A DNA stretch of 64,000 nucleotides from Candidatus Nitrosopolaris sp. (GCA_035691865.1 DASSIM010000025.1:661-64660), one strand, 5' to 3'; numbered from the stretch's first letter, positions 23,561-49,750 are shown. Numbers and translations are program-made. The notes: generated by a model not told the origin, from the sequence alone.

Positions 23561-25167
23561 GAGATACAATAACTAACTTCTCTTTCTTCTCACCACTTTG
23601 GCAGCCCAGGTGGCCGGTGGTTTCCACTCAGCAGCCCACATTGACTACGACTGCTGCTGCTACTACTACCAATCACTTCGTAGTAATTCCTTCTTTCAAA
23701 ATACCAGAAGAATATAGTGTTTGTGCTACTGTATTTATTTGGCCTTGTTCCGTCAGTTTAGAAAGTGTTGAAACTAGAGATTGCATTTGCTTCTCCAAGA
23801 CAGATACTCTATCTTCTTTCTGCTTCTCTGACTCGAGTGTTTCACTATAGGCGTCATACGTTAGCACCATCCTACATTTAGGACAGAATCTCGAGTCTGG
23901 TTTGTTTGGTTCGCTGCAGTTAGGACATTGCTTCGGTCTCAATGACTCTGATAACTGTTTATCCTTGGAAATTATTCCGTATGCTTCAAGTATACTATCA
24001 TTGGATTCGTTGCCAAAATAGTGTAAGTATTTTAGATGCATATTAGAACCAGGAGACCAGCCTGCAAATTGGCGGAGAGTATGTTCCTTTAGAATAGTAG
24101 ATTTTTCAGTTAGTGCACTATGCCTTCTTATATAGGGATTCCATGGTTTCTTCAATAACTCTCTAATCTTTTGCTTATCTTCTGGCGGGACGTTAGGATT
24201 GTTATTATCCAATAATCTGGGGAAAAATTTGTTTTTATAATTTTCGTATATTTTAGCGAGAGTTCTTTCATGTATAGATCTGTTGAAACTCTTACCAAAG
24301 CCACAGAACAATATGCTATTAGAATTACCTCCTTGAGGATGCTGCGAGATCCAGTCTTTTATGTACGGTATTGAATCTATAAGTGGTATATGCCTAGTTC
24401 CCGTTTTTCCGTTGACTAAAATCTCTGCGTACTGTCTCTTATCCGGTGTAAGTTTGAATACAACATCTTTTATTTTTAATTTCAAAAGTTCGTGAGGCCT
24501 TGCCGCTGAATCTCGAGACATTGCGTGGTAACATCTATCTCTAGGATTAGAACAATATTTCAAAAATAGCGAATCGTCATCAGGAGTCCATAAATCTGTA
24601 GGCTTGTAGATCGATTTCTCCTTTCTCTTAAGTCGAGGAATATTTTCAATGATAGATGGTTTTGGCCTTTTGTCCTGCTCGATATCTGGAGAGTATAACC
24701 ATTTGAAAAATCTCATTAAGTAGATTCGATATGTGTTGTATGTACCAATCCACTTGTGTAACGAGTCGATACTCTCATTTTTACGAAAACTATCAAGAAA
24801 TGACAATACGTCTTCTCTTGTTAATCCCTTGAATGGTTTACGATTGAAGAATATAGAGAATGTGCAAAGTAAGATTATAGTATTCTTCCTATAATCATCT
24901 GATGGATTAATCTCTGACTTTAGAGCTGATATATAATCACAGATGGTTAGGGCATTTTCCTTGTTAGCAGGTAATACCTTGTTATGAAGGAAGTTAAAGC
25001 AGTTAGACGATAGTCCTTCTGTAGCAGTTTCTATTTTCGTCTTTATTATGTCTGAAGGAGATGTAGTTGTAGCAGCATACGAAGTTATTTTTGGTCTAGG
25101 CAATAATTCGCTTCTTTTCATGGTTTTTACGTAATGGAACTGACTATATAAGTTAGTATTGTATTTC
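23561..25167 (-). mobile_element. Candidate single-gene tyrosine-recombinase element bounded by imperfect inverted repeats
   Basis: The left GAGATACAATAACTAACTT (23561-23579) matches the reverse complement of the right end, GAAATACAATACTAACTT (25150-25167), with one mismatch and one indel. Confidence 0.55.
23673..25121 (-). CDS. Tyrosine recombinase/integrase with C-terminal Zn ribbon and coiled coil
   Basis: SAARPHE, NGKTG, YIRRHSA, AGWS, LKYLHY catalytic-type motifs; CPNC...CPKC. Start reassigned to ATG 25121 (MKRSELL), ~24 nt downstream of TTATATAG. Confidence 0.93.
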   Translation of the reverse strand: MKRSELLPRPKITSYAATTTSPSDIIKTKIETATEGLSSNCFNFLHNKVLPANKENALTICDYISALKSEINPSDDYRKNTIILLCTFSIFFNRKPFKGLTREDVLSFLDSFRKNESIDSLHKWIGTYNTYRIYLMRFFKWLYSPDIEQDKRPKPSIIENIPRLKRKEKSIYKPTDLWTPDDDSLFLKYCSNPRDRCYHAMSRDSAARPHELLKLKIKDVVFKLTPDKRQYAEILVNGKTGTRHIPLIDSIPYIKDWISQHPQGGNSNSILFCGFGKSFNRSIHERTLAKIYENYKNKFFPRLLDNNNPNVPPEDKQKIRELLKKPWNPYIRRHSALTEKSTILKEHTLRQFAGWSPGSNMHLKYLHYFGNESNDSILEAYGIISKDKQLSESLRPKQCPNCSEPNKPDSRFCPKCRMVLTYDAYSETLESEKQKEDRVSVLEKQMQSLVSTLSKLTEQGQINTVAQTLYSSGILKEGITTK

Positions 25168-25926
25168 GTATCATTCATTAGTGAGTCCACTGTTATCACT
25201 TATACTTCAATATTTGAAACATTGTGGGCTCAATCCCAATTAAGGCATCCATTCACGAGGATGGGTTAACGATGAGATGCGTGCGGAGAAAACAGAACCG
25301 CAGCCGATTCAGTCGATGCCGGCGATCATGAAGATAGTGCTGTCTTCATGGGTTATGGGCATGCCAATGTAAATGTCCTGACTAACCGTTTGGCTAATAA
25401 CAAAAAATCAAATTCAGCCCTATCCTATAATAAAGGTGTAGAATTCTAGTTTCTAGGTGCGAACATAACGAAAACCACCGAACGATATAGACATTGAAAC
25501 ATTTTTAGTTGGAGGCGTATCGCTATTCTTTGAAACCCGCTTCTAAATAAGATATCGCTGCTGGAAACCTTGGGCCCATTTCAATCTTAGTCGTTTATTT
25601 ATGTCAACTTTGTATATTATCTTTAGAAGCATCAACGGCTCTTATTGACGAATTTCATGTATGACCTAGGTGCACCAGTGGCCGCGCAGATTAGAATAGT
25701 GGTTGATTCCTCACTAGTAGGCGAGACCATTGAACAAAGTGTCCGTAATATCGACTATAGAAAAGCCAGAGTGGCACCATACAAGCGTTCCATATTATTA
25801 TTATGGCCTCCTTGCAGGTGAGATTTATCCTGAGCAACAGATAATCATGACGGATTTATAGATAACGTAATAGTGTTACCTAAGCGTTATTAATCCTACG
25901 ACACTGTGTAGTGTGGTGATCTAAGA

Positions 25927-27760: not shown

Positions 27761-28015
27761 ATGCAAAAAAATAGAATGTCAAAGATAGCATGTATAGCAC
27801 TTGCAGGCGTGTTAGCAGCAAGCTTCGGCACAATCGTCAAGCTGACTACTACCCCAACTGTTGCCATGGCTGCGGCGCCTGGGGGTCAAACGGGCGGAAA
27901 AATGATTTCAGGGAATATGACTGGTACTAATACGACGAATGGCATGATGCATGTGCAGATATGTTCGTCCACCTATCCTTGTGCAAATAGTACTAACACT
28001 AAAGCCAGTAAATAG
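27761..28015 (+). CDS. Small secreted protein
   Basis: Signal-like N-terminus; G/M/T-rich; C-terminal CSSTYPC. Confidence 0.55.
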   Translation: MQKNRMSKIACIALAGVLAASFGTIVKLTTTPTVAMAAAPGGQTGGKMISGNMTGTNTTNGMMHVQICSSTYPCANSTNTKASK

Positions 28016-28538
28016 TAGCTCGACGGGTTCGAATTTAATGCTAGACGGGAGTGTATCCAACTGAGTCACACTACTATTGGAGATGACCCTCGTTAATAGT
28101 TAGATCTCTAATGCTCTTTCTGGTCGAAATTGAACTGCAGACGATTCGAAACTACACCCTAGGTGTTGCACGCATTGAAAATGTTGAACATCCTGAACAG
28201 GTATATCGAGCTTCCCGAGAATTGCTCCAGTTGAGCCAAAGATATTTTCTTCTCGTTCAGAGCCTGATGAAGCTGGCTTTTGCTCTGATTAGCTTGCTTC
28301 TTAGGTAGTCTTCTTTTGAATAGCTGTGAAAGCTGGATAGATCCAGTTAACCTTCATCATAAATAATTGGTACAATTTTTAACTCCTTTGCATATAATTG
28401 CAGAAGTCGCAACACATGTTCACATAATCACTATTGCGTGTGTGTGTGCTATCGAAATCAGATAATATCGTTACTATTGTACCGCAAGAGAGATTATATT
28501 TTGGTTTTTGGGGAGTGTTAACCAGTAATAAGTTAAGA

Positions 28539-28916
28539 ATGACCACACAACGCTCATATCGGGAGAGGATTTATATCGTCAAAGATATAATCCTCAAACT
28601 GGTTCAATACGGGGAATTGAATCAGACAGCCTTAATAAGTTGCTGTGGATTGAATTTTAAAAAACATTCACCGATTCTCGACAAACTAGAGATAAAGGGA
28701 TCAATAAGCAAAGCTCAAAAAGAAGTCGGAAAAAGAATAGTCACGGCATATAAACCAACTCAAAAAGGAATAGAATTTTCTAGGCACATTTTGGAGCCTT
28801 ATGAAATAATGTTTCCACGCTCAGACACATTACCGACAGACAATTTGGGATTCCTGCTAATCTCGATGACTCAGACTCTTATGCAATGTTTCTGTCTAGT
28901 TCTTTTTTTGGTTTAA
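28539..28916 (+). CDS. Winged helix-turn-helix regulator (HTH_45-like)
   Basis: YRERIYIVKDIILKLVQYGELNQTALISCCGLN...ILDKLE..G...YKPTQKGIEF. Confidence 0.8.
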   Translation: MTTQRSYRERIYIVKDIILKLVQYGELNQTALISCCGLNFKKHSPILDKLEIKGSISKAQKEVGKRIVTAYKPTQKGIEFSRHILEPYEIMFPRSDTLPTDNLGFLLISMTQTLMQCFCLVLFLV

Positions 28917-29440
28917 TAGACGGTACACTTGTCCCAAGAATCAATTGAGCGATATCGTTTGATTCCCCCTACCAGACAACATTTTCCCGAATTATCCAGC
29001 AATGTGTCCAGATTATGCATAAATTTCAGCCTTTTCACTAACATGGCGGCACCTGCTAGCACTTTACTATAGTACATAAATTGCCAGAAAAGATTGGTGC
29101 AATGGTGATCAATTCGTGCCGGAAGTCAGTAGATCTACCATAAATGAATTTGACGACTTGTGAGACATGATTCGATTGTCGTTAATTATTTGAACTCTAT
29201 ATTCTGTCCTCGTCGCAGGTTAGAACTTCGGACTTCATAAGCGGGTATTTATTTTTAACTCATTTTTGATGCATAGGATTACAATAGCGCCTGACCCAAT
29301 TTGCTACAAGTTATAATGGTGTCATTATTGGAAAAACCAAATCCCCATATATATGACTGCTGAGAAATTCTTATACTAAATTCATAGCGGAGACGGGTTC
29401 TTAAGTCCTTTATATTATGCTTCACACTAACCGATCTAGC

Positions 29441-30451
29441 ATGAATTATTCAGAATCAAATAACAGAAAAATAGGTATAGTAGCGGCTGTAGTTATAGCA
29501 ATCGCAGCGATGATGATCCCAGGCGCAAGCCTCACATCAACAGCATTCGCACATAAGAGCGATAGCATAAGCGGCAGCGGTAACGTTCAGCAATCTATAA
29601 GTCAATCCAACTCCGTGAGCGCTTCCAATAGTGGTACCGGTGGTAGCGCGAGTGCAGATCACAATACTCAAACCAATAATGCAGCTAACATTGCAAGCGT
29701 AGACATTCACAACGGTGGAAGCCACGATAAAAAATCAGGACATCATCACAAAGGTGGCAGCATTAAGGGCAGTGGTAACGTAGTCCAATCCATAGACCAA
29801 TCCAACTCTATCAGTGCTTCCAATAGTGGTAGCTTTGGTAGTGCGAGTGCAGATTTCAACACTCAAGCCAATAATGCAGCCAACATTGCAGGTGTAGACA
29901 TTCATAACCACGGCGGCGGTAAGATCAAGGACAGTGGTAACGTACTACAAGCCATTGGTCAAAGCAATTCGATCACTGCAACGAATACTGGTACCGGTGG
30001 TAGTGCAAGCGCAGATTTCAACACTCAAACCAATAATGCAGCCAACATTGCAAGTGTAGACATTTCCAACCACGGCGGTTATCATGGTGGCAAAATTAAG
30101 GACAGCGGTAACGTAGCCCAATTGATTGGACAGGATAACAGTATCACCGCGACAAATTCTCCTGCTCCGACACTTCTGGCGTGCTTGGTTGGAGAATCCA
30201 TTCCACCCTGTAGTAGCGCAAGCGCAGATTTCAACACTCAAACCAATAATGCAGCCAACATTGCAAGTGTAGACATTCATAACCACGGCGGCGGTACAAT
30301 CAAGGACAGTGGCAACGTAGCCCAATTGATTGCACAAGCAAATTCCATCAATGCAACCAATACAGGTAGCTTTGGTAGCGCGAGTGCAGATTTCAACACT
30401 CAAAGCAACAACGCAACTAATTTCGCAGACATAAGCATCAGCAATCATTAA
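29441..30451 (+). CDS. Secreted N/Q/S/G/H-rich repeat protein A (five ~54-aa repeats)
   Basis: Signal peptide ending STAFA; repeat I(K/S)xSGNVxQxIxQxNSIxAxN-G..G-SASADFNTQxNNAxNxAxVDIxNHGG occurs five times. Confidence 0.9.
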   Translation: MNYSESNNRKIGIVAAVVIAIAAMMIPGASLTSTAFAHKSDSISGSGNVQQSISQSNSVSASNSGTGGSASADHNTQTNNAANIASVDIHNGGSHDKKSGHHHKGGSIKGSGNVVQSIDQSNSISASNSGSFGSASADFNTQANNAANIAGVDIHNHGGGKIKDSGNVLQAIGQSNSITATNTGTGGSASADFNTQTNNAANIASVDISNHGGYHGGKIKDSGNVAQLIGQDNSITATNSPAPTLLACLVGESIPPCSSASADFNTQTNNAANIASVDIHNHGGGTIKDSGNVAQLIAQANSINATNTGSFGSASADFNTQSNNATNFADISISNH

Positions 30452-30464
30452 GGAGATACCTTCA

Positions 30465-30477
30465 TTTTTTATTTTTT
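30465..30477 (+). terminator. Oligo-T terminator after repeat protein A
   Basis: ttttttatttttt, 14 nt after the stop; a similar tract follows paralogue B. Confidence 0.55.
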
Positions 30478-30604
30478 GCATCCCCAATTCGCTTAAAATT
30501 AGATACTTCTATCTTCTCTTTCATAGTACCCGTGCTTGTTTAAGAATTCATCGAATTCTAACACATCTAGACAATCGTAAACTGAGTTAAACCGGAGCTA
30601 CAAC

Positions 30605-30990
30605 TCAGAAATATAATTCATCGAGAGCATTTTTATTCCATTGAATTCGGAAATCGATGGATAACCAATTGTTTAGACCAATCCCTCGAAAATCGTATTT
30701 GACACCAAGATTGACAATATTCTGTTTAACATATTTCTTGATTATGCTCGGTTTATCTGTTTCAATTACTTTCTCATCCTTGATAGTATATTCCTTACAA
30801 AGGACGATTCCTTTCAAGTCTGCTATTATGTGGTCCCCTGCGGTTGGCTCATCGATGAGTCTTGGAAATCTTCTTCCTTTGCATTCGATAACGTGACATC
30901 TGATCGCATCTTCACATGAAGATAAGCTCGCATACTTTTGAAATCCTCACGTCTTGCCAATAGACGCATTCGTAGCCCATTTGGCTCAGC
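30605..30990 (-). pseudogene. PD-(D/E)XK nuclease-like fragment
   Basis: LSQMGYECVYWQDVRI / CHVIECKGRRFP: an (E)xK motif in a frameshifted reading. Confidence 0.35.
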
Positions 30991-31062
30991 TTGGTTTCCG
31001 AGCTCTTATCGAGGCAGTTAGTACAAGCAAGCTGCAAATCAAGCTGTTAAGAACGATTTCAG

Positions 31063-32715
31063 TTATCTAAGTCTTTTGCCTAGCATATCGGTAAGTCGCT
31101 TCAGAGCTGCAGATCCATCATTCGGGTCTAATCGCACATCCAAAATGCAGAGACCATCGGAGTATTGATTAGCAGCCTCTAAGGCCATATCAAACTCATC
31201 TTCAGTATTAATAACATAGCCTCTCCCGCCTCCAACAAGACCTGGAATGCTTTTGTAATCCCACTGTTGCAGGTCGTTAAATGGACCATCGAGCAGACGC
31301 CGTTCGGTTCCGTAACCGCCATTATTCAGGACTATAACGATTGGGTTCAATTGGTACCTGACTGCAGTTGATACTTCCATTCCAGTCATCTGAAAAGCAC
31401 CATCTCCGACGATTACGAGTGGCCTCAATTTGGGATCAGCTAGTTGAGCCCCTATCGCCGCAGGAACAGCAAAACCCATAGAAGTATAGAATGCAGGGGC
31501 GAGGAATTCTGTGTCGCGTAGTATAACCAAATCAAGTGCACCAAACAGAGAGTCTCCCACATCGGCAATAACGATAGTATTCGCGGTTATAAACGAGGCG
31601 AGCCTGAGAAATAAGCGCTGTACAGTAATCTTTTTTCCGATGTTGGACAAAAATGTAGACGCCGATTCATTACTGTATCGTCTAAAACGTACGGGCTCTC
31701 TCCTCCATATGTTTGCCGATCTCAGACCACGAATGAAGTCTTGTAGTCCCACATTCTCAAAATTATGATGCCGAATGGACAACTTCTCGCTAGTTACGTA
31801 TATGGTATGACTCTGATCTATTGGTGTGACTGCCATTCCGAAATCTATATCAGTCATTAACGCACCTAGTAAGATCAAACAATCACTAGATTCCACAGCT
31901 TCTCGGACCTTGTCATCACCCATCGCTCCCTCGTACAAGCCGAGATAGTACGGATAATTTTCGCGTATTACAGACTTGCTTAAGATAGTGGCCACGACCG
32001 GGATACCGGTCTTCTCGATTAGCTGCAGCATTTCATCTTGTAGGCCAAACCGTTGGATCTCTACCCCTGCTACAATAGCCGGCTTTTGTGACGCATTTAT
32101 CATCGCCATAGCTTCTTCAACTGCTTCAGTAAGAACCACAGGATCACTTCTTTCTTGGTTATCGCCCTTCAAATTGTCTGAAACATTGGCTACGACTGTA
32201 GAGATCATGTCGCGAGGCAACTCAATATAGACTGGTCGTTTATATCGGAATGCCATAGACAAGACACGATCAATTTCGGCTCGAGCAGTGTCAGGGTTGT
32301 TTAATACCGTAGAAGCGACCGTTATATGTTCAAATATCTTTTGTTGGGTATCATATTCACGGACGACATGGTGAAGAAGCGGATTCTTTGTACGTTCTTT
32401 TCCCCCAGGTGCACCACTAATAACTGCGACAGGCGACTTTTCGGCATACGCTTGGGCAGTAGCATTGACCACCTTAAGACCCCCAACACAATATGTAATA
32501 CAAACCGCCCCAAAACCCTTAACACGTGCATATGCATCTGCTGCAAATGCGGCCCCTTGTTCATCACACGTGTTTACCACCTTAAGCATATTACTACGGA
32601 TCATCTCATCATAGAAGCCAAGAATGTAATCCCCTGGAACCCCGAAAATGTGTTTAGTCCCATATTCGTGTAGTTTTTGGATTAGATAACTGCTAATCGT
32701 ATGCGTATTTTCCAT
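31063..32715 (-). CDS. TPP-dependent alpha-keto acid decarboxylase (pyruvate/indolepyruvate/phenylpyruvate decarboxylase family)
   Basis: IFGVPGDYIL, CDEQGAAFAADAYAR (catalytic Glu), LLHH, ADVGDSLF, TPP motif GDGAFQMTG...NNGGYG. Confidence 0.93.
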   Translation of the reverse strand: MENTHTISSYLIQKLHEYGTKHIFGVPGDYILGFYDEMIRSNMLKVVNTCDEQGAAFAADAYARVKGFGAVCITYCVGGLKVVNATAQAYAEKSPVAVISGAPGGKERTKNPLLHHVVREYDTQQKIFEHITVASTVLNNPDTARAEIDRVLSMAFRYKRPVYIELPRDMISTVVANVSDNLKGDNQERSDPVVLTEAVEEAMAMINASQKPAIVAGVEIQRFGLQDEMLQLIEKTGIPVVATILSKSVIRENYPYYLGLYEGAMGDDKVREAVESSDCLILLGALMTDIDFGMAVTPIDQSHTIYVTSEKLSIRHHNFENVGLQDFIRGLRSANIWRREPVRFRRYSNESASTFLSNIGKKITVQRLFLRLASFITANTIVIADVGDSLFGALDLVILRDTEFLAPAFYTSMGFAVPAAIGAQLADPKLRPLVIVGDGAFQMTGMEVSTAVRYQLNPIVIVLNNGGYGTERRLLDGPFNDLQQWDYKSIPGLVGGGRGYVINTEDEFDMALEAANQYSDGLCILDVRLDPNDGSAALKRLTDMLGKRLR

Positions 32716-33838
32716 ACCCTTTCGGCGAAACTTGATTCTATTAAGATTTATGGGGATCGAACGATATAGTTCTATTATCCATAAACTTTGGTATACATGA
32801 ACTCAGACACCCATGGTAATTACTAGAACACGACACAGTTACTGTGATACTATAGATGCGGATAGTAGCTTTATTTTCTAAATAAATATTCTATGGATCA
32901 GGTAACTAAATCAGTTTTTTAAGCTGCAGGCACATTATTTCAAATTATTTTCTGCTTACAAATATCACATATTTCAGGGGGAGTAGTCATATTTGACCCT
33001 CCATAAAATCAGATTCATCAATCATTATACTACCATATTCACCACTAGTTGAAATGCTGCCATATCTACTAACAATTTTTTCTTTGCTTTAGTCAATGCT
33101 TACCTTTCAAAGTGCCATAAGTACGTTTATTCAATCTGTCATCTTCTATAGTATTAAAAAATAGTATTTTTTCTGCATCCCTATTTAGCATAGGGTATTG
33201 TAACATTGGTTTTAATGCTCTTATCTGCAAATTTGCGACGTTAATATCTACAAATATCATTTTGTATACATTGATAACATGGTCAGAAATTCTTGATATC
33301 CCTTAAACTGTTTTGTGAGGAAGGACTCTTTAGATAAGCGATAATTCGCAGCATCTATCTTGGCGTTTCTAGGTGATTAATGTGGGAGTAAATTCCTTTC
33401 ACGTGTGTGATTTATCATATTCTTTCACATCACAGACTTGATATCAAGCTCCATCAGAAATACAAAGAGGATTGCTTCTGTATGATAACAAAATACGAAA
33501 AATAAAGGTGGTGACCTTAGTTAGGCGTCACTTCTCTGCCGGGAGGAACAAAGTTTAAGTTCAAAGAGCGCAATAAAAAAGAGGGGATTTTAAGAACAGT
33601 TTTATCAGACACTGACTAACATCTTGCCCTGATGCACCCTTCTTCTTCGAGTATGATAAAGATAGTTGAAAGCAACAGTCACTAAGTGAACTTGCAGGAC
33701 ATTTCCAGCCACAATTTATAATCCGCTCTGAGATAAAACAAACCCCTATGACAATGAAATACAAATACTGCTGCAAAAGTCTATGAGAATCAGGAGACAA
33801 CGGTTATCTGGACGGAACATACCTGTATTTACAAAGGC

Positions 33839-34099
33839 TTGACGTGGATACAATCCTTCCAGCGTTACCAATTTTGTGTGAACTGCGGAAAACCAAATCT
33901 TGGACATTCAATAGACAACGCTCCGAAATGTCTAACCCTTAGGAAGATGATGCAGAAAAACCAAGTTGGACAAATCGGAAACGAATTTCGTTTCAATCTT
34001 AATAGCAAAATGGAAAGCAGCCAATCCCAACCCGGTACAGGGATAGATTATTGTCCATATTGCGGCATTAAATACGTCGCACCGACTTTTTCTTCCTGA
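33839..34099 (+). CDS. Small Cys-rich (Zn-binding) protein
   Basis: CVNC...H...C and C-terminal CPYC. Confidence 0.55.
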   Translation: MTWIQSFQRYQFCVNCGKPNLGHSIDNAPKCLTLRKMMQKNQVGQIGNEFRFNLNSKMESSQSQPGTGIDYCPYCGIKYVAPTFSS

Positions 34100-34279
34100 C
34101 TGGTGGGGACATATTCAAAAGCCAATATATTTAGTCGTTGTGAGTACATTAAATTTTCACCAATTTTACACTTATTCATATATTTCATTCAGCAACTTCG
34201 TTTTTGGGTAAACTAAATCAAAAGTGCGGTACATTGTTTGAGAATGCCCTTATACTAAAACAAGTAATATAATATTGTT

Positions 34280-34618
34280 ATGCAGAAATTTATTATAGTT
34301 ACAACGAGTTTGACACTGGTTGTTGCCACTATACTTGTAGCTGGAACATTACTGTTTCCATACAACTATGCAATGGCGGGTAAGAGTCACGATGCGTCCC
34401 ATAGCAATACTGCTAATGGCGCGCAAATTGGCGGTCCTGAAGACCACGATAATATAGGTCACGGTAATACTGGTACGGCTAATATAGGAAATGGAAATCA
34501 CGGAATCCATAATATGGGCAACGGTAATACGGGTAGAAATAACGTAGGGAATGGCAACACAGGTAGCAACCTTGTAACAGATCCCATACCGTGTGTTGAC
34601 AACAAAAAATGTGACTAA
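34280..34618 (+). CDS. Secreted protein with NxGxGNxG repeats (PPE-MPTR/pentapeptide-2-like)
   Basis: Signal peptide ending YAMA; NIGHGNTGTA NIGNGNHGIH NMGNGNTGRN NVGNGNTGSN; terminal Cys pair. Confidence 0.82.
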   Translation: MQKFIIVTTSLTLVVATILVAGTLLFPYNYAMAGKSHDASHSNTANGAQIGGPEDHDNIGHGNTGTANIGNGNHGIHNMGNGNTGRNNVGNGNTGSNLVTDPIPCVDNKKCD

Positions 34619-34862
34619 CCAAAACGAAGTTATTTGTGCAGGATAGTCAAGCGAAGAAGCTCACAATTCCCACAATCCTTTTTGATTCTAATTGTTATTA
34701 TTAAAGAAGAAGAAATAACCAAATCATAGGCAACAACAAATGTCCCAACATTAGGAAACCCCGTACTCACTACCTATAAGAGAGTGACATTCTTATATTA
34801 GATTCCTAGTAGAGACGAACTTCTAAGCTATTTATATCAGACTCAACACTAGTCGTACTAGT

Positions 34863-35774
34863 ATGTATTCTTACGGAAAAATAGGCATTATAGCGGTAGT
34901 AGCTATAGGAATAGCGGCTATGATGATTCCAGGCGGAAGCCTTGTATCAAGAGCTTTTGCAGATTCAAGTGCAAGTAACAATGACCAGTCAAATTCAGCT
35001 AGCAATAGTGCAACCGTACACATCAGTAACGGAGGACATCATGATAATAAATCAGGACACAGCGACAAAAAAGATCACAAGAGTGGTGGTAAAATAAGCG
35101 ACAGCGGTAACGTTCATCAAGATATTTCACAGTCAAACGACATTAGTGCCAGCAATACCGGAAGTGGCGGCAGTGCGTCAGCGGATTTCAATAGTCAGTC
35201 AAATGATGCAAGTAATTCGGCTGACGTTAGCATACACAACCACGGATCTCATGGTAAAATTAGCCACAGTGGTAATGTTGACCAATCTATAACTCAGTCA
35301 AATTCTATTAGCGCCAGCAATACTGGTGGAAGTCCACCTCCATGCGGCACCTGTATTACTGCCCCTGTCAGGACAGACGGCGTTAGCGGCGGTTCCGCAA
35401 GTGCAGACTTCAATACACAGTCAAATTCAGCAACCAATACTGCAGATGTAGACATTCACAATCACGGCGGTAAGATAAGCCATAGTGGTAATGTAGATCA
35501 GTCTATCACTCAATCAAACGATATTCAAGTCAGCAATAGCGGTAGCAGCGACGGTTGCGGCGTATCGTGCAGCACAGCCTTAGAGATAATCATCCCAGGT
35601 GCAGACGCAAACTTTAACACACAATCAAATGATGCGACTAACACTGCAAGCGTAGACATTAGCGGTCATGGGGGCAGTTTAAGTCACAGCGGCAATGTAG
35701 ATCAGTCAATTACACAATCAAATTCTATTAACGCAACAAGCACATCTGGGGGCGGTTGTCCTAACTGTGGTTAA
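34863..35774 (+). CDS. Secreted repeat protein B, paralogue of 29441..30451, with C-terminal CxxC
   Basis: Leader KIGIIAVVAIGIAAMMIPGGSLVSRAFA is homologous to that of A; SGNVDQSITQSNSI / SASADFNTQSN.A.N.A.V.I repeats; ends GGGCPNCG. Confidence 0.9.
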   Translation: MYSYGKIGIIAVVAIGIAAMMIPGGSLVSRAFADSSASNNDQSNSASNSATVHISNGGHHDNKSGHSDKKDHKSGGKISDSGNVHQDISQSNDISASNTGSGGSASADFNSQSNDASNSADVSIHNHGSHGKISHSGNVDQSITQSNSISASNTGGSPPPCGTCITAPVRTDGVSGGSASADFNTQSNSATNTADVDIHNHGGKISHSGNVDQSITQSNDIQVSNSGSSDGCGVSCSTALEIIIPGADANFNTQSNDATNTASVDISGHGGSLSHSGNVDQSITQSNSINATSTSGGGCPNCG

Positions 35775-35799
35775 CAGAAGCCATTAACGGAAACCAACC

Positions 35800-35814
35800 T
35801 TTTTTTATTTTTTT
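35800..35814 (+). terminator. Oligo-T terminator after repeat protein B
   Basis: tttttttattttttt downstream of the stop. Confidence 0.55.
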
Positions 35815-35943
35815 GTAGAAACAATGTAGTCGCATCAGGCCAAGTTATTTTTAATCATCAGGTAATATTGTAGAAATAAAATTTTCACCACTTTACCTGT
35901 GTCCGTATATTTCATTCAGCAGTTTCGTTTTTTGGTTACGTTT

Positions 35944-36276
35944 CTAGTTACCATCATATATTTTACACTGCACAGTAAGAAGGTTTAGAGTTATAGGATA
36001 ACCACAATTCGCTAAAGTGTAACCCATATCCTCTTGCAACCTCCTCTTACTCATCATAACCTTCGGAGTGCCCAATTTGTTGAACGGCATCACTATCATT
36101 CCCTCTTCTATTCTAATTCGCCAATTTTTACTTATGAGGTGTTTAATGACTTCTCCTAGTGCACGCTCAAATTCCGTTAAAGAAAATTCAGGCTTGACTT
36201 CAACACCTATCAGACGTTCATCTGTAAAAACTACGGTATCGAATCCTCCGCAGCTCCTTATCTTACCGACACACAC
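35944..36276 (-). pseudogene. PD-(D/E)XK nuclease-like fragment
   Basis: GGFDTVVFTDERLIGVEVK then FERALGEV (D-x-E-x-K plus Q-helix-like segment); N-terminus apparently missing. Confidence 0.5.
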
Positions 36277-36278
36277 CT

Positions 36279-36370
36279 AATAGTGATTTGTATGTAGCGA
36301 ATGAGCATGGTGACTCTGTCTCAGTAATACAAACAAAAGCTGTAATTGGTAGTCCTATAAAAAATTAAGG
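36279..36370 (+). pseudogene. Single YVTN-type beta-propeller repeat remnant
   Basis: NSDLYVANEHGDSVSVIQTKAVIGSPIKI. Confidence 0.5.
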
Positions 36371-36424
36371 CACCTAAGTACATGAAGATATAAACCTTTA
36401 ATACTTTACTTGCGTTTGGGGGTT

Positions 36425-36739
36425 ATGAATAAAAGCCATGCACTTTTTGGTACCATCCTGGTTACTATAATGATGCTGATAATACCAACACACTTTGCGA
36501 AGGCAAGTATTTGCAGCGCTTCAGCTTCCTCAGTTGGTAAGCCGCATAGCAAGCCCCACAAGTTTGGTATAACGTTTTCCAGTCCAGACAGTTGTTCTGT
36601 TGCTGCAGGCGCTAGCCATACTGCTGGAGGATTCGCAAATTTTGCCGGTAAGTCCAGTTGTGCGGGCCAGTCGGTAGCGAAATTTCCTAGTGGCTCAGGC
36701 GGAAGTGGTAGCGGCAGCGTAAGTTGTATTTCACCTTAG
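36425..36739 (+). CDS. Small secreted Ser/Gly/Ala-rich protein with four Cys
   Basis: Signal peptide ending FAKA; ICSASASS...SCSVAAG...SSCAGQS...SVSCISP. Confidence 0.75.
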   Translation: MNKSHALFGTILVTIMMLIIPTHFAKASICSASASSVGKPHSKPHKFGITFSSPDSCSVAAGASHTAGGFANFAGKSSCAGQSVAKFPSGSGGSGSGSVSCISP

Positions 36740-37952: not shown

Positions 37953-38756
37953 TTGCCAATGGATTCCGGCAATGAAATTCCCAATCTCATACCTGTAGAA
38001 ATAAGAGAATTGATGCTTGAAGAACAGACCTCGATGACTGATGTACATGCACTGAAGGTTATTGCAGAAAGTAGGGCTAGAGTGGCTAAAGCTCTAAAAG
38101 AAGAAAGTATAGTATTTCATTCATATCTGGAAGGTTCAGACAATTTCCTTCGATCCCATCTAGGTTCCAGGATCCACCTGGTGATTTTGTATGCTGACAT
38201 AGTCAATTCTACTCGAATGAGCACAGTGCTTCCACTTGAAAAGTTAACGACCATCTTACAAATATTTGCACAAGAAATGACTGTTGTCGTCGCAAATAAC
38301 GAAGGTTATATTCTAAAGTATGTGGGAGATGCAATTATAGTTTACTTTCCTGTCCCCACTGCTAGTGAGATTAGTGTGTCCGCTAGAAGAGCAGTTATGT
38401 GTGCTCTACATATGTTAATTGTAGTTGAACACGGAATAAACGCCATTCTCAAACAATCTGATTTTCCAGAAGTGCATATAAAAATTGGTATTGATTCAGG
38501 GGAGAATGCAATTATCGAGTATGGTTCGAGTGGATCGAAATCCCACATTGATATTCTTGGGTATCCAATGAATGTTACTGCTAAAATCACATCGTTAGCA
38601 CAAGCAGATCATATTTTGGTTGGTGATACTACATATCGATGCCTTGATCTACGAACGCGTGAGAAACTAACCAAATTGGGCTTAAAACGTCAGGATTATA
38701 TCAATTATCTGACTGGTGATGCATATATTATTTCCTCGTTTGGATTGCAATCCTGA
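37953..38756 (+). CDS. Class III adenylate/guanylate cyclase
   Basis: ILYADIVNST, LKYVGDAI, IKIGIDSG, DILGYPMNVTAKI. Confidence 0.92.
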   Translation: MPMDSGNEIPNLIPVEIRELMLEEQTSMTDVHALKVIAESRARVAKALKEESIVFHSYLEGSDNFLRSHLGSRIHLVILYADIVNSTRMSTVLPLEKLTTILQIFAQEMTVVVANNEGYILKYVGDAIIVYFPVPTASEISVSARRAVMCALHMLIVVEHGINAILKQSDFPEVHIKIGIDSGENAIIEYGSSGSKSHIDILGYPMNVTAKITSLAQADHILVGDTTYRCLDLRTREKLTKLGLKRQDYINYLTGDAYIISSFGLQS

Positions 38757-49087: not shown

Positions 49088-49750
49088 GTCTTCACTCCAC
49101 TAGCATACTCAGCAGAACACAATCCAATTTACAGAAATTAAAAACTGGGACTTATATTTACACATGCTTATTTTGTTAATGGATGACAAAAAGTTTGCAC
49201 TAAACCCAGCCAACCAGAATTTGCCTGTTATTTTTATTTGCTATGCGTATATATACTAAGCTTGGACAAATTCCTAGCCTCGACTTTTGAGAAAATTGTT
49301 GATTAACTGCTTTTTGAGCCTAGCTAATCCTGCCATACATATTTCTTTGATTCCTTATAATTAACGTTGATATGGCAATCGTATCAATCTGAAGCTAAGA
49401 CGAGATCTCATATTTGTAAGATTTCATTATATTAGCTAAGCATAAGCATTTCAACAGTATGAAAAAATAGATCGCAGTTACCCAGAATAAAAAGAGGGTT
49501 TTTGTTAATGATTCTTTATATGTACGTCTGCGCTATTGCTGGCTTAATTGGACTGTATGTTACCACTTGCACTTGAGCTGCCAGAAGACCCAGTAATAGA
49601 TAATAGACAATTCTAGTAAAATTTATGATAAAAAGTTGTTTAATTTATTATTGACTAATGACCACTTTACCTTTTACACTTTAGTTCTCTGCAAGACTAA
49701 CTACAGCTGCAGCACAGAACTCGATATAGTTTGTCTTTGCACACGTTACC

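Follow-up and report, generated by a model that had tools for sequence, protein, structure and literature searches.

Do the secreted, low-complexity repeat proteins encoded at one locus of Candidatus Nitrosopolaris sp. assemble into an extracellular fibre, and do the genes beside them belong to the same system? Ammonia-oxidising archaea dominate nitrification in many soils and occur in aggregates with uncharacterised extracellular material, and we know of no functional amyloid or matrix fibre protein in these organisms. The window analysed here is a stretch of 64,000 nucleotides, in which an earlier note had picked out four same-strand genes for secreted proteins within 7.3 kb, A to D, and had suggested that A and B might be the major and minor subunits of an extracellular amyloid-like or beta-solenoid polymer, C and D serving as accessory subunits. 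The presence of amoA in the genome (E = 2e-115) identifies the host as an ammonia oxidiser, and the organism was placed by means of this gene and CDC48.

Genes and promoters

All four open reading frames were found as described (Table 1), and each product begins with a hydrophobic segment that has an AxA-type site at its end. The N-termini (RK-IGIV or HK(R/K)-IIPV, then P-x-x-S-L-A-x-x-A) are by eye of the Sec/SPase I type with an AxA site; they lack the signature of a class III (pilin-type) signal peptide, in which [KR]-[GA] immediately precedes the hydrophobic segment. The genes do not, however, form one contiguous set, as a TPP-enzyme gene and a further ORF, both on the opposite strand, intervene together with other ORFs.

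A and B are real genes under purifying selection, with dN/dS values of 0.16-0.24 (for A, 0.16-0.22 against orthologues and paralogues); the long minus-strand ORFs within A are shadows of its repeats. Each gene is preceded by a conserved promoter region, whose distal block occurs in the genome only upstream of the paralogues. The TATA-like element of A lies so near the ATG that the leader would be very short or absent. Judged by these upstream sequences, the two genes form separate transcription units, each having a duplicated, conserved promoter of its own. A promoter motif shared with C and D was rejected as evidence of their co-regulation with A and B: the generic TATA-like core CTTATACTAAA alone recurs upstream of C, and no A/B promoter element recurs upstream of D. 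The HTH_45 protein encoded upstream of A is a possible regulator, and a 62%-identical copy lies beside an A paralogue on contig C86 (tblastn and ORF context).

Table 1. Features of the A/B locus, numbered from the first nucleotide of the window
Feature	Position	Strand	Remarks
HTH_45 winged-helix protein (candidate regulator)	28434-28916	+	upstream of A; Pfam PF14947, 26.3 bits
A promoter region	29368-29416	+	conserved; alignment of upstream regions of all four paralogues
A distal block	29368-29383	+	TTCTTATACTAAATTC
A TATA-like element	29409-29416	+	TTTATATT; 25 nt before ATG at 29441
Gene A	29441-30451	+	336 aa
A signal peptide	29441-29551	+	residues ~1-37
A repeat R1	29567-29728	+
A repeat R2	29762-29920	+
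A repeat R3	29924-30085	+
A repeat R4	30095-30295	+	18-aa Cys-pair loop inserted at strand1-strand2 corner
A repeat R5	30299-30448	+
TPP-enzyme gene	31063-32715	opposite to A-D	between A and C/B, with other ORFs
Gene C	34280-34618	+	112 aa; small, secreted; adjoins B
B promoter region	34790-34838	+	conserved
B distal block	34790-34805	+	TTCTTATATTAGATTC
B TATA-like element	34831-34838	+	TTTATATC; 25 nt before ATG
Gene B	34863-35774	+	303 aa; permuted paralogue of A; C-terminus CPNCG
B signal peptide		+	residues ~1-33
B lone strand-2 half repeat	34956-35045	+	N-terminal side
B full repeat 1	35094-35252	+
B full repeat 2	35259-35471	+	Cys-pair loop insertion
B full repeat 3	35475-35675	+	Cys-pair loop insertion
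B lone strand-1 half repeat	35682-35756	+	C-terminal side
ORF	35944-36276	opposite to A-D	between B and D
Gene D	36425-36739	+	104 aa; small, secreted; Ser/Gly/Cys-rich
Fifth family copy, decayed remnant	49508-49600	-	terminal strand-2 segment ...GSSSASGNIQSN-stop-ASNSADVHIKNH-stop; in-frame stop, no ORF

Architecture and distribution of the repeat family

A and B do share a repeat of about 54 residues, and after the signal peptide the mature proteins consist of such repeats only; at the DNA level the period is 162 nt, with 82% matches (TRF). The end of A, which has five repeats, coincides exactly with the end of its last strand. B has three full repeats and two half repeats, and this layout, with a half repeat at both ends, is kept in 5/5 B-type homologues. 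Across the family the number of repeats ranges from 3 to 6, the first begins at about residue 43, and a median of 0 residues follows the last.

The strict alternation claimed for the long strands proved very strong across 204 unique family repeats. The core faces of the strands, V-Q-I-Q-N-I-A-N and N-Q-N-A-N-A-V-I-N, are 88-100% conserved and uncharged; the opposite face is variable or Ser/Thr-rich, and insertions are confined to the two corners. The description of the loops as His-rich also holds, with His in 167 of 186 corner loops (90%), the motif HG[GS] in 58% and an overall composition of G 28% and H 17%. His occupies the outward positions 46, 48 and 50 beside the loop as well, and the His positions are 31-65% conserved, far below the core. 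The loops of the divergent members P0066 and P0067 are made of Gly, Ser and Thr, with little His. Outward positions 14, 16, 18, 20 and 22 are conserved as Ser (55-86%) or Thr (0-37%). The last rung is enriched in N-glycosylation sequons (37/62 versus 7/173), and the genome carries an AglB/STT3 gene. The C-terminal Cys pair likened to that of FapC is present in B and in the B-type homologues P0046 and P0062, but is not sufficient by itself.

The repeat belongs to no named family, in agreement with the earlier note: neither A nor B has a significant match, to a known soluble family or otherwise, in Pfam, NCBIfam or the PDB (phmmer and PDB profile search), and all 79 clusters of the family among 5.8 billion proteins are unnamed. 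Marginal matches to DUF4179 (E = 0.015) and to a xylanase (E = 0.066) cover the signal peptide only, and a scan of named genomes with A returned no relatives. The family occurs in 1 of the 81 genera of the class, apparently Ca. Nitrosopolaris, and strong matches were obtained in 4 of 12 sampled species of that genus; repeat genes assemble poorly in MAGs. The present genome holds four paralogues, among them the A paralogue on C86, and one decayed remnant. Some homologues have cell-surface glycan genes as neighbours or stand beside NosD-type beta-helix proteins.

Predicted structure and comparison with known systems

The AF2 models of A (pLDDT 83, pTM 0.79) and B (pLDDT 78, pTM 0.75) are all-beta and stacked, as had been anticipated, with ladders of Asn/Gln and small hydrophobic residues that are conserved over the repeats. 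The predicted strand pattern and the conservation logo agree with an in-register strand-arc-strand stack, albeit with non-significant fold matches and a rung of 54 rather than about 22 residues. Foldseek returned only weak, non-significant matches (TM <0.16), all of them parallel beta-solenoids. CsgA ranked first for A; for B it was FapC (E = 0.0077, TM 0.08/0.13, non-significant), with the E. coli CsgA fibril tenth. The solenoid adhesins SRRP, tapirin, PfbA and Ag43 and the antifreeze protein 3p4g were also among the weak matches. The proposed likeness to CsgA and FapC stands insofar as these are the nearest structural neighbours, but the matches are non-significant and sequence homology is absent. 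A and B are predicted to be subunits of an unnamed, curli-like, wide beta-solenoid family whose rung is about twice the width of that of curli.

Like CsgA and CsgB, A and B are secreted, are made only of imperfect tandem repeats and have no cap; repeat number varies, and some members have terminal half repeats. In both systems, Asn/Gln and small hydrophobic residues are conserved on the inward side, outward positions vary freely and the arcs are where insertions occur (PMC10192328). Structures of CsgA also rank among the best fold matches, which are non-significant. However, there is no sequence relationship: Curlin_rpt (PF07012) has no match in A, B or the whole genome at E <=1, at which the E. 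coli control was found. The A/B rung comprises 54 residues in two 15-17-residue and two 3-residue strands, whereas that of curli has 19-23 residues in two 7-residue motifs, and the His/Gly corner loops and Cys-pair loop insertions have no counterpart in curli. The host, moreover, is an archaeon without an outer membrane, CsgG was not found in its genome (controls positive), and the neighbouring genes are unrelated and form no csg operon. The FapC and FapB proteins of Pseudomonas (fapABCDEF) are likewise secreted and built of imperfect repeats rich in N, Q, S, G and A, and FapC shares the C-terminal Cys pair with B-type members. Yet FapC repeats are split by long linkers whereas A/B rungs are contiguous, Pfam and NCBIfam gave no match to indicate FapC homology, and no Fap accessory genes lie nearby.

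A proposed self-stacking fibre model

The explanation that we prefer, though we hold it tentatively, is that A and B are putative self-stacking extracellular fibre subunits: Sec-exported, lineage-specific, curli-like beta-solenoids of double width. Fibre formation by the two proteins is plausible. Each rung would comprise strands of 3, 15, 3 and then 16-17 residues, a prediction that the sequence alone also supports. The two long strands would pack face to face through an uncharged zipper of Asn/Gln and small hydrophobic residues, with V-Q-I-Q-N-I-A-N paired against N-Q-N-A-N-A-V-I-N, and the rungs would stack in register. Since neither end is capped, the exported subunits would join terminus to terminus in the extracellular space, and the resulting cross-beta fibres or ribbons would be part of a matrix or cell coat. 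Mature B-type proteins begin with a single strand-2 and finish with a single strand-1; these half-rungs are complementary, and together could make up one rung between adjoining subunits. It is the conserved inward zipper, together with free outward residues, arc insertions and terminal half repeats, that makes this design curli-like.

Because the cell lacks an outer membrane, dedicated secretion machinery would be unnecessary. The His/Gly loops (HNHGGGK, SNHGGYHGGK) would line one edge of the stack, so that net charge would swing from about +14 at pH 4 to -7 at pH 7, and Cu, Ni or Zn could bind at this edge. The conserved Ser/Thr array would occupy one of the outer faces, and the sequons the last rung. 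Several points count against the fibre model. No conserved accessory genes were found near A or B, the fold matches are non-significant, and AF2 tends to over-predict beta-solenoids for repeats. The conserved Ser/Thr face and the His edge look more like a surface directed at a ligand than like parts of a purely structural protein, and strong matches in 4 of 12 species are odd if the proteins are a bulk structural component.

A more far-reaching version of the fibre reading, which we consider doubtful, is that ammonia-oxidising archaea have in A and B their first fibre subunits of functional-amyloid type. The cross-beta ribbon would have evolved independently, would be about twice the width of curli and would self-assemble without accessory machinery; a rung shared between half-rungs would connect B-type subunits head to tail, and the His/Gly edge would tie assembly, or the capture of Cu(II), to pH in acidic polar soils. 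If true, the curli design logic would have arisen from unrelated sequence in an archaeon without outer membrane or accessory genes, a clear example of convergence on cross-beta fibres, and the family would also give protein designers a wide, flat solenoid scaffold of a new kind. Because the family is restricted to a genus of polar, acid soils and has the His/Gly edge and the Ser/Thr face, its connection with the ecology of cold, pH and copper can be tested. Even if monomeric, A and B would represent a new beta-solenoid family, of modest lineage-specific interest.

Alternative readings of A and B

The same corner loops could instead form a His/Gly ladder with which non-polymerising secreted or surface beta-solenoids bind or buffer metal, most likely Cu(II), else Ni or Zn, in a copper-dependent ammonia oxidiser. 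HGGG-type segments of the prion octarepeat bind Cu(II), and the abundance of His and HG[GS] in the loops and of His at the adjoining outward positions is what such a ladder would present. The genus, furthermore, comes from acidic, oligotrophic soils (PMC10117904). Nevertheless, we regard this reading as unlikely: five 54-residue rungs are a costly scaffold for a few loops, the His positions are far less conserved than the core, the loops of P0066 and P0067 contain little His, and copper-handling genes are not linked at the examined loci.

Ca. Nitrosopolaris occurs in cold soils. The confinement of the family to apparently this one genus, the regular hydroxyl array that the outward Ser/Thr positions would form on a flat face of sheet 1, and the presence of 3p4g among the weak fold matches are consistent with ice binding (antifreeze, ice-recrystallisation-inhibiting or ice-adhesion activity) in a polar or alpine archaeon. 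A and B resemble the solenoid antifreeze proteins (insect Thr-ladder AFPs and MpAFP, 3p4g) in their flat repetitive face, its hydroxyl array and the cold habitat of the organism. Known solenoid AFPs, however, use Thr ladders, whereas the A/B array is dominated by Ser. With no match to a Pfam ice-binding family, strong matches in only 4 of the 12 species and a core far more conserved than the putative binding face, an ice-binding function is improbable.

We attach similarly little probability to A and B being monomeric cell-surface adhesins or envelope-associated proteins, possibly glycosylated, in which the solenoid is a rigid display scaffold for binding mineral, polysaccharide or the S-layer. 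The adhesins among the weak fold matches, the sequon-rich last rung with an AglB/STT3 gene in the genome, and the surface-glycan genes near some homologues would fit such a role, but A and B have no anchor, whether C-terminal transmembrane segment, sorting signal or stalk, and known solenoid adhesins are capped and are parts of larger proteins.

That the solenoid is an AF2 artefact, and that A and B are disordered low-complexity secreted proteins or adopt another fold, is more improbable still. AF2 is known to over-predict beta-solenoids for repeat sequences, with confident but unrealistic models (PMC11795689), and no significant structural neighbour was found. Such artefact models, however, show stacked internal charges, of which the conserved A/B face has none, and the period-2 conservation, the corner-only insertions and a dN/dS of ~0.2 are independent of AF2 and unexpected for disorder.

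C and D as neighbours of the repeat genes

A single fibre system of four components, in which C and D would be accessory to the major and minor subunits A and B, is very improbable indeed. In its favour, A to D share a strand within 7.3 kb, B has C immediately upstream both here and in L019, and the A paralogue on C86 has a D-like ORF 3 kb away. Against it, A orthologues in L017, L018, L020 and L021 have neither C nor D nearby, B-type genes lack C upstream in L103 and L105 and D downstream in L103, L105 and L106, D has a single homologous cluster, and unrelated opposite-strand genes are interspersed among separate promoters. L019, the only locus in which a C-like gene directly precedes the B orthologue, carries the closest orthologue. 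From the gene context at eight other loci, an operon or four-gene module was rejected, and the four-gene model is largely refuted because conserved linkage of A/B with C/D is lacking in relatives. Membership of C and D in a conserved system, as accessory subunits or otherwise, is not supported; they are neighbours.

The sequence features ascribed to C and D were nonetheless borne out. D is Ser/Gly/Cys-rich and a near-orphan, with one other cluster among 5.8 billion proteins and distant paralogues in the genome. It matches no family in Pfam or NCBIfam; a match to the iron oxidase Iro was rejected, at 18.5 bits against a cut-off of 100. C contains four 10-residue units, N-[IVM]-G-x-G-N-x-G-x-x, and a C-terminal Cys pair. 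Residues 62-98 pass Pfam Pentapeptide_2 (PF01469; 32.1 bits against a cut-off of 26.4, E = 1e-7), which also flags the L019 orthologue, weakly. These units resemble those of the PPE-MPTR proteins, but C is a 112-residue secreted archaeal rather than mycobacterial protein, with four units, a C-terminal Cys pair and no PPE domain.

Repeat architecture and predicted structure

Protein A consists of five 54-aa units, and B of three full units, preceded at the N-terminus by the second-strand half of a unit and followed at the C-terminus by a first-strand half; at the DNA level, the period is 162 nt (TRF). Position conservation, computed over 204 unique repeats of the A/B family, reveals near-invariance and a complete lack of charge on one face of each long strand. 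In strand 1, this face comprises V7 (97% identity), Q9 (99%), I11 (81%), Q13 (100%), N15 (99%), I/V17, A19 (91%) and N21 (97%), and in strand 2, N33 (99%), Q35 (92%), N37 (100%), A39 (98%), N41 (98%), A43 (99%), V45 (92%), I47 (88%) and N49 (89%), with glycines at corner positions 5, 23, 26 and 51. The alternate strand positions are variable, except for a conserved Ser/Thr row at 14-22, and insertions are confined to the two corners, several of them being Cys-pair loops. The corner leading from strand 2 to strand 1 is a His/Gly loop, typically HNHGGGK or SNHGGYHGGK, with His in 167 of 186 loops and HG[GS] in 107. The last rung (one repeat) is specialized, as N-x-T sequons occur in 37 of 62 last repeats compared with 7 of 173 inner repeats. 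An AglB/STT3 gene was found in the host genome.

AF2 models based on the family alignment are confidently all-beta for both A (pLDDT 83, pTM 0.79) and B (pLDDT 78, pTM 0.75), and every repeat is predicted as E3-turn-E15-turn-E3-turn-E16/17. Foldseek against the PDB gave no significant match to either model (TM <0.16). All of the weak matches are parallel beta-solenoids or beta-helices; Pontibacter CsgA tops the non-significant matches for A, and FapC heads those for B, with the E. coli CsgA fibril in tenth place. We read the models as locally curli-like in geometry, with a rung whose width prevents superposition on any solved solenoid; handedness and sheet packing are inferred. AF2 is known to over-predict solenoids for repeat sequences, stacked internal charges being the mark of such artefacts (PMC11795689), and the A/B repeats are free of this sign. 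Furthermore, the period-2 conservation and the corner-only indels argue for the fold independently of AF2.

Relatives and distribution

Neither A nor B matched Pfam, NCBIfam or PDB sequences. The Curlin_rpt profile found nothing over the whole genome, the E. coli control being detected, and CsgG is absent from the genome. When 5.8 billion proteins were searched through a word index, the single sequence returned 64 clusters and the profile 79, all unnamed and strong-scoring; 1.84 billion representatives were also searched exhaustively with HMMER, giving 32 matches. Among species genomes, the family occurs in one of the 81 genera of the class, from which 12 species were sampled and 4 gave strong matches; some matches lie at contig ends, so that assembly loss is likely, short-read MAGs being prone to fragment at such repeats. 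The A/B family is new and genus-restricted, and it combines a curli-like logic with a wide rung that is itself novel.

Four intact paralogues are present in the genome: A, B and one copy each on contigs C86 and C39. The decayed fifth copy points to gene turnover, and a dN/dS of 0.16-0.24 for the A/B genes indicates purifying selection. Contig C39 (7.1 kb) also carries a ParB_N-domain gene, its remaining genes being unknown, and may represent a plasmid or another mobile element. Upstream of A lies an integrase-like ORF.

The host genome contains amoA (E = 2e-115), and the CDC48 encoded in the window shares 95% identity with its counterpart in Ca. Nitrosopolaris wilkensis. Nitrosopolaris is a polar/alpine, acid-soil genus, and the GC content of ~39% and a TPP keto-acid decarboxylase fit its published descriptions (PMC10117904, PMC13006922).

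Gene organization and promoters

The four plus-strand ORFs, A to D, are all present as first described, and other genes are interspersed among them. Each N-terminus starts with a charged residue, continues with 17-19 hydrophobic residues and a helix breaker, and closes with an AxA-type site; this pattern reads as a Sec/SPase I export signal and not as a pilin-type one. Long minus-strand ORFs within A were rejected as shadows of the repeat.

Location of the genes and other features discussed (window coordinates unless a contig is named)
Feature	Position	Strand	Remarks
Integrase-like ORF	23673-25199		sub-threshold Phage_integrase match, zinc ribbon
Small secreted ORF	27776-28015	+	79 aa
HTH_45 regulator	28434-28916		adjoins A
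Gene A	29441-30451	+	336 aa
TPP-dependent enzyme gene	31063-32715	opposite	with several small ORFs, between A and C/B
Gene C	34280-34618	+	112 aa
Gene B	34863-35774	+	303 aa
Unknown ORF	35944-36276	-	110 aa, between B and D
Gene D	36425-36739	+	104 aa
Class III nucleotide cyclase	37953-38756	+	
Decayed A/B-family copy	49508-49600	-	terminal strand-2 segment, in-frame stop, no ORF left
GNPHD-motif protein	C86:3568-3783	-	71 aa, secreted
D-like ORF	C86:4004-4249		
A/B-family paralogue	C86:7391-8407		
Mini-protein	C86:10149-10373	+	74 aa, secreted
A/B-family paralogue	C39:5696-6832		six repeats
Class III nucleotide cyclase	L019:3179-3913		
NGGNGG-unit protein	L019:5469-6641		390 aa, secreted
Copies of the 110-aa ORF	L103:5122-5619		two

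An upstream stretch of ~85 nt is common to all four A/B-type paralogues; within it lie a distal block with no second occurrence outside these genes and, 25 nt ahead of the ATG, a TATA-like box. Each paralogue is therefore an independent transcription unit, duplicated together with its promoter, and these units are probably near-leaderless. An HTH_45 regulator gene is found next to A, and again next to the C86 paralogue.

The earlier note had proposed a four-protein fibre locus, with C and D as accessory subunits. No C- or D-like genes lie near the A orthologues on contigs L017, L018, L020 and L021, where the neighbours differ; similarly, C is absent upstream of the B-type genes on L103 and L105, and D downstream of those on L103, L105 and L106. 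Among B-type loci, a Pentapeptide_2 gene lies directly upstream in the closest B orthologue only (L019, 82% identity), and among the 5.8 billion proteins, D has one homologous cluster. Given this lack of conserved linkage and the independent transcription units of the A/B-type genes, the four-gene system does not hold: the curli-like repeat family stands, but C and D are not established as partners.

On L019, a related metagenome contig, the C-like and B-like genes are directly preceded by a gene whose product consists almost wholly of NGGNGG/SGNSNNGNGG units, with Cys at regular intervals; the window has no counterpart at this site. Both in the window and on L019, the B gene has a class III nucleotide cyclase gene a few kb away at most (35% identity), oriented differently relative to B at the two loci. 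Homologues of the 110-aa ORF occur twice on L103, an unrelated contig (39-75% identity), at ~3.5 kb from a B-type gene of divergent sequence, and this ORF may be a recurring neighbour.

Proposed function

Curli combine a conserved inward zipper with unconstrained outward-facing residues, insertions at the arcs, a variable number of repeats and half repeats at the termini, and the design of the A/B family, including its 3 to 6 repeats, matches these principles (PMC10192328). The predicted mature proteins, residues 38-336 of A and 34-303 of B, are without caps, the first repeat starting directly after the signal peptide and a median of 0 residues following the last. Uncapped beta-solenoid ends favour end-to-end stacking. 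In B-type proteins, whose permuted layout is kept in all five members, the two terminal half-rungs of neighbouring subunits would complete one shared rung, a specific docking mode.

Owing to the His/Gly edge, the charge of A is strongly pH-dependent, with a computed net value of +14 at pH 4 and -7 at pH 7. This edge is a candidate that could bind Cu(II), and the Ser/Thr face could putatively contact ice, mineral, glycan or an adjoining protofilament. In rival readings, A and B may be monomers with a metal-binding, ice-binding or adhesin function. Because of the curli-like design, the uncapped ends and the putative half-rung docking of the B-type, we tentatively favour A and B as self-stacking subunits of an extracellular fibre or ribbon, and consider fibre formation plausible.

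Other small secreted proteins

The genome seems rich in small secreted low-complexity proteins. The 79-aa product encoded in the window is Gly/Thr/Asn/Met-rich with a Cys pair, and has a paralogue on contig C44 (47% identity). The C86 mini-protein (...HHNHNHNQNSIDVSQSINQANLCSNSTCINDASNSADIHR), encoded 1.7 kb from an A paralogue, looks like a single A/B-type rung whose corner bears a Cys pair. On the same contig, close to the D-like ORF, the 71-aa protein, in which a GNPHD motif recurs and an HHH run is present, may be a further metal-binding peptide.
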